From Escherichia coli (lineage in GTDB: Bacteria; Pseudomonadota; Gammaproteobacteria; Enterobacterales; Enterobacteriaceae): DNA of 2,594 bases. The position numbers and the translations under genes were made by a program. The stretch is from NCBI RefSeq assembly GCF_003334255.1, contig NZ_QOWU01000132.1. One strand, 5' to 3'. Of the stretch, positions 2,308 to 2,372 are shown in pieces; position 1 is the first letter of the stretch, and the number at the start of each line of letters is the position of its first letter. The notes beneath the pieces are model-generated. The model ran no database searches. It had not been told where the DNA came from and saw nothing but the letters and a program-made list of their open reading frames with translations.

Positions 2308-2335
2308 CAACCCGCCGCCGAGCGGGTTTTTTATT
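2308..2335 (+). terminator. Intrinsic (rho-independent) terminator, tR'-like
   Basis: GC-rich hairpin CCCGC(2311-2315)/GCGGG(2322-2326) with a 6-nt loop, extendable by two A-U pairs, followed by TTTTTTATT (2327-2335). Lies about 45-65 nt downstream of the predicted late-promoter start. Confidence 0.65.
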
Positions 2336-2372
2336 GCGGAATTAATTACGGACCGTTATTATTCTGCTCCCG

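Follow-up and report, generated by a model that had tools for sequence, protein, structure and literature searches.

The window (the whole stretch of 2594 nt of Escherichia coli DNA analysed here) is the late-regulatory region of a lambdoid prophage, in which tRNA genes follow a gene for a Q-type antiterminator, a likely late promoter PR' and a tR'-like terminator (Table 1). This arrangement raises the question of whether the tRNAs depend on late transcription that passes tR', or whether the short interval between tR' and the first tRNA carries a promoter of its own, as a preliminary description of the sequence had proposed. We consider it very likely that positions 2334-2362 are a sigma-70 promoter, the counterpart of the pT element of phage 933W, which would belong to a mobile ileZ-argN-argO cassette of lambdoid-prophage late regions and give tRNA transcripts that are independent of PR' and Q. 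The basis for this reading is the geometry of the sequence, its positional homology to the annotated pT and the selective conservation of exactly the sigma-70 determinants.

Layout of the window and geometry of the element

Table 1. Features of the window and of the candidate promoter pT (window positions)
Feature	Position	Strand	Basis or remarks
DUF968/NinG-like gene	16-1029		
rusA	1030-1392		
Q-type antiterminator, 273 aa	1407-2228		
Likely late promoter PR', TTGATT-N16-TAAATT preceded by TGG	2234-2261	+	Top sigma-70-like score in the window, either strand
tR'-like intrinsic terminator (7-bp G+C-rich stem, 6-nt loop, T-run)	2309-2333	+	Terminator scan; adjoins the -35 of pT
-35 hexamer TTGCGG of pT	2334-2339	+	3/6 versus TTGACA; aligns with the start of the 933W pT feature (21082-21110)
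Spacer, 17 bp, upstream half A+T-rich	2340-2356	+	Sequence
-10 hexamer TATTAT of pT	2357-2362	+	5/6 versus TATAAT, A2 and T6 included
Discriminator and very short leader, TCTGCTCCC	2363-2371	+	Predicted start near 2369-2372, from standard sigma-70 geometry
tRNA-Ile, anticodon CAU, ileZ-type, reads AUA	2372-2447	+	ARAGORN; Rfam tRNA, 72.5 bits; PGAP tRNA-Ile
argN-type tRNA-Arg, 5' portion, anticodon TCG, T-arm truncated	2455-2518 (start approximate)	+	Partial Rfam tRNA match at 2461-2521, 31.2 bits
IS421 (IS4 family), left end, terminal repeat ATAAGCGCTAACTTAAGGGTTG	2519-2594	+	Annotation of near-identical genomes

The PR' candidate begins 6 nt past the stop codon of the Q gene and its TGG makes an extended -10; judged by its position, it is probably PR'. 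An RNA running from this promoter to tR' (which ends near 2333) would be only ∼65 nt long, whereas the StxS precursor made by Stx phages measures 258 nt. The Q protein encoded in the window (273 aa) is unrelated in size and sequence to that of 933W (144 aa), and contains four CxxC-type cysteine pairs (CPCC, CPEC, CKDC and CQRC), the last three of which are followed by GxxG and resemble DnaJ-type zinc fingers. Three candidate features in this part of the window were rejected: an Rfam Trp_leader match at 2229-2335 (25.5 bits versus a gathering score of 41; only the terminator hairpin accounts for it), a Plastid-ycf2 Rfam match on the minus strand (the tRNA read backwards), and a spurious ORF at 2272-2409 (45 aa) that runs across the terminator and the tRNA.

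The proposed location, after tR' and before the first tRNA, is correct: the terminator hairpin (2309-2328, -11.2 kcal/mol) is followed by a U-tract (2327-2332) that adjoins the -35 hexamer, with terminator and promoter standing back to back, and the tRNA starts at 2372. The hexamer TTGCGG was correctly located at 2334-2339, but the remaining geometry needs revision. TATTAT, placed earlier at 2358-2363, is found one base to the left (2358-2363 reads ATTATT), which shortens the spacer from 18 bp to 17 bp; and the mature 5' end of the tRNA, given as 2373, is G2372 according to both ARAGORN and Infernal. The revised spacer is the sigma-70 optimum (and lies within 17 +/- 1 bp), both A2 and T6, as expected of a sigma-70 -10 hexamer, are present at 2357-2362, and 9 nt separate the -10 hexamer from the tRNA-Ile 5' end, where C2371 and G2372 form a pyrimidine-purine pair that is favourable for initiation.

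The -35 hexamer matches TTGACA at TTG only, and the TGn of an extended -10 is absent at pT. The built-in promoter scan called no site anywhere in the window, and it missed pT because its rule asks for a -35 match of at least 4/6 and TTGCGG, at 3/6, falls under this threshold, not because the motif is absent. On the two strands of the window together, there is a single exact occurrence of TTG-N20-TATNAT, versus 0.11 expected. Using a sigma-70 weight matrix (a rough one, based on textbook consensus frequencies), we ranked pT as the second-best sigma-70-like site on either strand of the window.

One alternative is that the hexamers are chance matches, and that the tRNAs are found only in the late PR' transcript, made when Q suppresses tR' and cut by RNase P and RNase E to release them. 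The weak -35 and the silence of the promoter scan fit this explanation, as does the chance rate estimated with the rough matrix (about one site as good as pT per strand per 2.6 kb); the tRNAs are moreover inside the late operon, so read-through must deliver them too. By the same rough matrix, however, only ∼0.7% of random sequences have such a site 4-12 nt before a given point, which is the placement that pT has relative to the tRNA. The hexamers by themselves are suggestive and not decisive, and the case rests on their position together with their conservation.

The earlier proposal spoke of several tRNAs. This is right for the tRNA-Ile, which is the only intact tRNA gene downstream of pT in the window (its 933W counterpart is annotated as ileZ, 'codon recognized: AUA'), but the argN-type tRNA-Arg has been cut by IS421 and only its 5' part is left. 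The fragment is not called by ARAGORN, and the alignment of the window to intact argN stops after 2518, with the IS element inserted in the T-arm. The transposase ATG lies near 2574, in the sense of pT and PR' transcription, so read-through from either promoter could enter the transposase gene. A genome with 97.6% identity has the full 1.3-kb IS421 with terminal inverted repeats and a 12-bp target duplication; argO, if present in the prophage studied here, would be found beyond this element. Several complete genomes are 100% identical to the window over 1-2518 and continue into intact argN and argO genes, and about 2067 out of 5426 complete E. coli genomes have at least 80% of the window.

Homology to pT of 933W and a comparative footprint

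A feature annotated as 'pT; putative tRNA promoter' in the record of phage 933W (AF125520, 21082-21110; GenBank, 1999) corresponds exactly to window positions 2334-2362 in the alignment. The two elements are positionally homologous, each being directly upstream of ileZ (in 933W, pT is annotated 10 nt upstream of this gene), and the record of VT2-Sakai (AP000422) has the same annotation at 21123-21151. The window and 933W have in common a 29-bp element with a TATTAT -10, a 17-bp spacer, 9 nt to the tRNA and ileZ downstream. They differ in the -35 (TTGCGG in the window versus TTGCAG in 933W), in three positions of the spacer and in two of the discriminator. The surroundings differ much more: the T-run of tR' adjoins the -35 in the window, whereas a DNA methylase remnant ends 2 nt upstream of it in 933W; the Q, PR' and tR' modules of the two are unrelated; and pT of 933W is followed by ileZ, argN, argO, a terminator and stx2, whereas in the window argN is interrupted by IS421. 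A tRNA promoter has been listed among the q-stx2 regulatory elements, with a SNP in it in clade 8 O157 strains (PMC2858043). Judging from the alignment, the window element is the counterpart of the known pT. Both the promoter and the functional idea are already in databases and the literature, and the finding is probably real but ordinary.

A BLAST comparison of 2200-2594 with phage records divides this region in two. Its Q-to-tR' part matches few phages only (e.g. mEp460), whereas more than 280 records of Stx and other lambdoid phages match from window position 2332 onward. In non-lambdoid phages, the 40 nt upstream of the tRNA found no match in the phage-record comparison, and the tRNA body alone matches. 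Only 2 nt separate the beginning of the shared homology from the -35, so the tRNA cassette appears to carry its own promoter, and the comparison shows, at the level of sequence, that the cassette moves together with it.

We retrieved 120 loci from IMG/VR with an exact 33-nt ileZ probe, and obtained 118 usable upstream regions (window included in the comparison, one outlier, L106, left out), which represent 39 unique sequences; the requirement for an exact 33-nt match in the tRNA means that these sequences are fairly close relatives and not independent. Among the 39 unique sequences, nine of the 38 columns between the start of the -35 and the tRNA are invariant, and these are the TTG of the -35 and all six positions of TATTAT. 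Every other column varies: the 17 of the spacer, the last three of the -35 and the nine of the discriminator. The last three -35 positions read CAG, AAG, CGG, TGG, CAA or ATT among the relatives. The hypergeometric probability that nine pre-specified columns are precisely the nine invariant ones is P = 6e-9, a value that is indicative only, the sequences being related. The spacer is 17 bp among the relatives (16 bp in one subfamily), and the distance from the -10 to the tRNA is 9 nt (10 nt in one subfamily). In the L053-type family, both hexamers are in register and no gaps are needed, although about half of the spacer positions have diverged. This footprint is the one expected of a sigma-70 promoter under purifying selection. 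Together with the base-for-base alignment to pT of 933W, the finding that the sigma-70 determinants are the sole invariant upstream positions lends support to the earlier suggestion of an independent tRNA promoter.

At least five unrelated far-upstream contexts are found among the 39 unique sequences. Immediately ahead of the cassette is the stop codon of a DNA methylase gene (933W type) or the T-run of a terminator (window type); in a third context the cassette overlaps the final codons of an AraC-like ORF, and in two more it follows a different Q type or a membrane-protein ORF. If the hexamers were chance matches, neither their retention across such unrelated flanks nor the exact invariance of nine sigma-70-critical positions, with all 29 other upstream columns varying, would be expected.

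A few individual loci deserve mention. In L010-type loci (IMG/VR; 26-60 nt upstream of ileZ), the promoter overlaps the end of an ORF encoding a 237-aa AraC-like regulator (ending in MQGLDF and the stop codon), and the -35, TTGATT, falls within the coding sequence. L106 (IMG/VR) is the only cassette whose upstream 40 nt are non-homologous to pT; it has TTGAAA-N16-TATTAT 32 nt upstream of the tRNA, which is possibly a replacement promoter. IS421 recurs in this tRNA region: upstream of the second ileZ copy in L123 (IMG/VR), one IS421 end adjoins the -35 of a window-type cassette and destroys it (TTGC is left), and the other IS421 end is in argN of a 933W-type cassette. This arrangement may have arisen when the IS brought about a rearrangement of two cassettes, or it may be a join made in assembly (N is present).

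Transcripts of related prophages and alternative readings

Transcript ends have been mapped in two relatives. In E. coli O157:H7 Sakai, grown with no inducer, dRNA-seq detected a primary 5' end upstream of the tRNAs of the Stx2a prophage (Sy et al. 2020, PMC7547250). The distance from tR' to ileZ in this phage is only ∼160 nt, and pT is the annotated promoter there. According to the authors, the culture contains a spontaneously induced lytic subpopulation (PMC7547250). As we read them, the Sakai data show independence from PR' and not strictly expression in repressed cells, and they concern a different prophage from that of the window. In EDL933 (NZ_CP008957), Cappable-seq found a start on the + strand at 1354192 in all eight conditions (PMC10469882). 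We read this as PR' of BP-933W: it is ∼9 nt downstream of the start predicted from the PR' hexamers in the 933W GenBank record, and its position fits the PR'-tR' distance of 258 nt given by Sy et al. (PMC7547250). The primary start upstream of the Sakai tRNAs (PMC7547250) also counts against chance hexamers and tRNA supply by the late transcript only, an explanation that we consider very unlikely.

It is also conceivable that pT is real in Stx phages and that the window allele has decayed functionally, having a TTGCGG -35 and an operon broken by IS421. TTGCGG matches the consensus at 3/6 positions versus 4/6 in some relatives (TTGCAA, TTGAAG and TTGATT), and the IS421 insertion shows that the cassette is no longer fully maintained. 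TTGCGG is, however, also present in intact three-tRNA cassettes (in several complete genomes that are 100% identical over 1-2518), phage mEp460 has the same allele, TTGCAG of 933W is likewise 3/6, and the -10 and the spacer are unchanged. A decayed allele is thus unlikely, and the chance that we would give it is very slim.

The least probable reading is that TTG...TATTAT is an RNA-level signal in the pre-tRNA leader (a ribonuclease or protein-binding site for processing of the late transcript) and not a DNA promoter: the U/A-rich GUUAUUAUU does closely precede the tRNA, in the region where leaders are processed, and conservation alone cannot tell DNA from RNA signals, but two blocks at a fixed 16-17 bp, with spacer and leader free to vary, make a sigma-70 pattern and not a processing site, inspection of the leader by eye found no RNase E motif (no AUU triplet with the purine at -2 of RN/WUU, the motif being that of PMC7547250), and the Sakai 5' end is primary, not processed (PMC7547250).

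Proposed mode of action, parallels and meaning

If 2334-2362 is read as a promoter, we infer that it is active in this prophage, where it initiates, that its expression is constitutive and that the host may benefit. RNA polymerase holoenzyme (E-sigma70) would bind TTGCGG-N17-TATTAT and start around 2369-2372, within 0-4 nt of the mature tRNA-Ile 5' end. The leader would be 0-3 nt in the window and possibly 4 nt in 933W, which has a G six bases after the -10. Transcripts from PR' would stop at tR', where pT begins, and because pT is immediately downstream of this terminator, its transcripts should need neither PR' nor antitermination by Q. Synthesis of the tRNA could then proceed while the lysogen is repressed and in the early phase of induction, and Q-modified polymerase coming from PR' would later read through tR' and add to the tRNA output. 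In the window, the pT transcript would comprise intact ileZ, the truncated argN and then IS421. The activity of pT may be low, since its -35 is weak (3/6) and it has no extended -10 and no conserved upstream element.

With initiation so close to the mature 5' end (0-4 nt), the leader left for RNase P would be unusually short. Because the -10 and the tRNA are a fixed 9-10 nt apart, the start should fall at or within ∼3 nt of the mature end, and one may think of a near-leaderless phage-borne bacterial tRNA gene, whose tRNA-Ile would either be transcribed with its mature 5' end, as a triphosphate, or have too short a leader for RNase P to recognize in the normal way; we regard this extension of the promoter reading as unlikely.

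Promoters of stable RNAs in E. coli, such as tyrT and rrnB P1, offer one parallel. Like these, pT would be a sigma-70 promoter directly before a tRNA, with a rather G+C-rich discriminator (TCTGCTCCC in the window and CCTGCGCCC in 933W). Unlike these, pT has no conserved UP element or Fis-site region (because the upstream DNA is unrelated between the contexts of the cassette), its -35 is weaker and its predicted leader far shorter. A G+C-rich stretch from the -10 to the start site is a mark of stringently controlled stable-RNA promoters, but subfamilies of pT differ in the G+C content of this discriminator: it is 6/9 in the window and 7/9 in 933W, but 4/9 or 4/10 in two subfamilies (range 4/9 to 8/9).

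Prophage morons, which are autonomous promoter-gene(-terminator) units that sit among conserved phage genes and are expressed in the prophage state, offer another. The tRNA cassette resembles them in being a self-promoted accessory unit, in its varied late-region contexts and in a homology boundary just outside the promoter; its cargo, unlike theirs, is tRNA and not protein. The fit to the moron concept is partial: 933W has a terminator, annotated after argO, that closes the unit, but none is evident in the window lineage, where an intact relative has no convincing terminator within ∼300 nt after argO.

AUA accounts for 12.3 per 1000 codons in the window's three phage genes, and the Q gene has three AUA, six AGR and five CGG codons. 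A tRNA supply that depends on Q could not aid the translation of Q itself, so independent expression makes sense for the phage. No new principle is involved, the idea having already been attached to phage 933W; what is added here is a comparative footprint for an element that is still 'putative' in databases, and the observation that the cassette travels with its promoter. The window-type module is found in ∼2000 of 5426 complete E. coli genomes, and pT explains how a tRNA that reads the rare AUA codon could come from such a prophage even when lytic growth has not set in and Q has yet to be produced.
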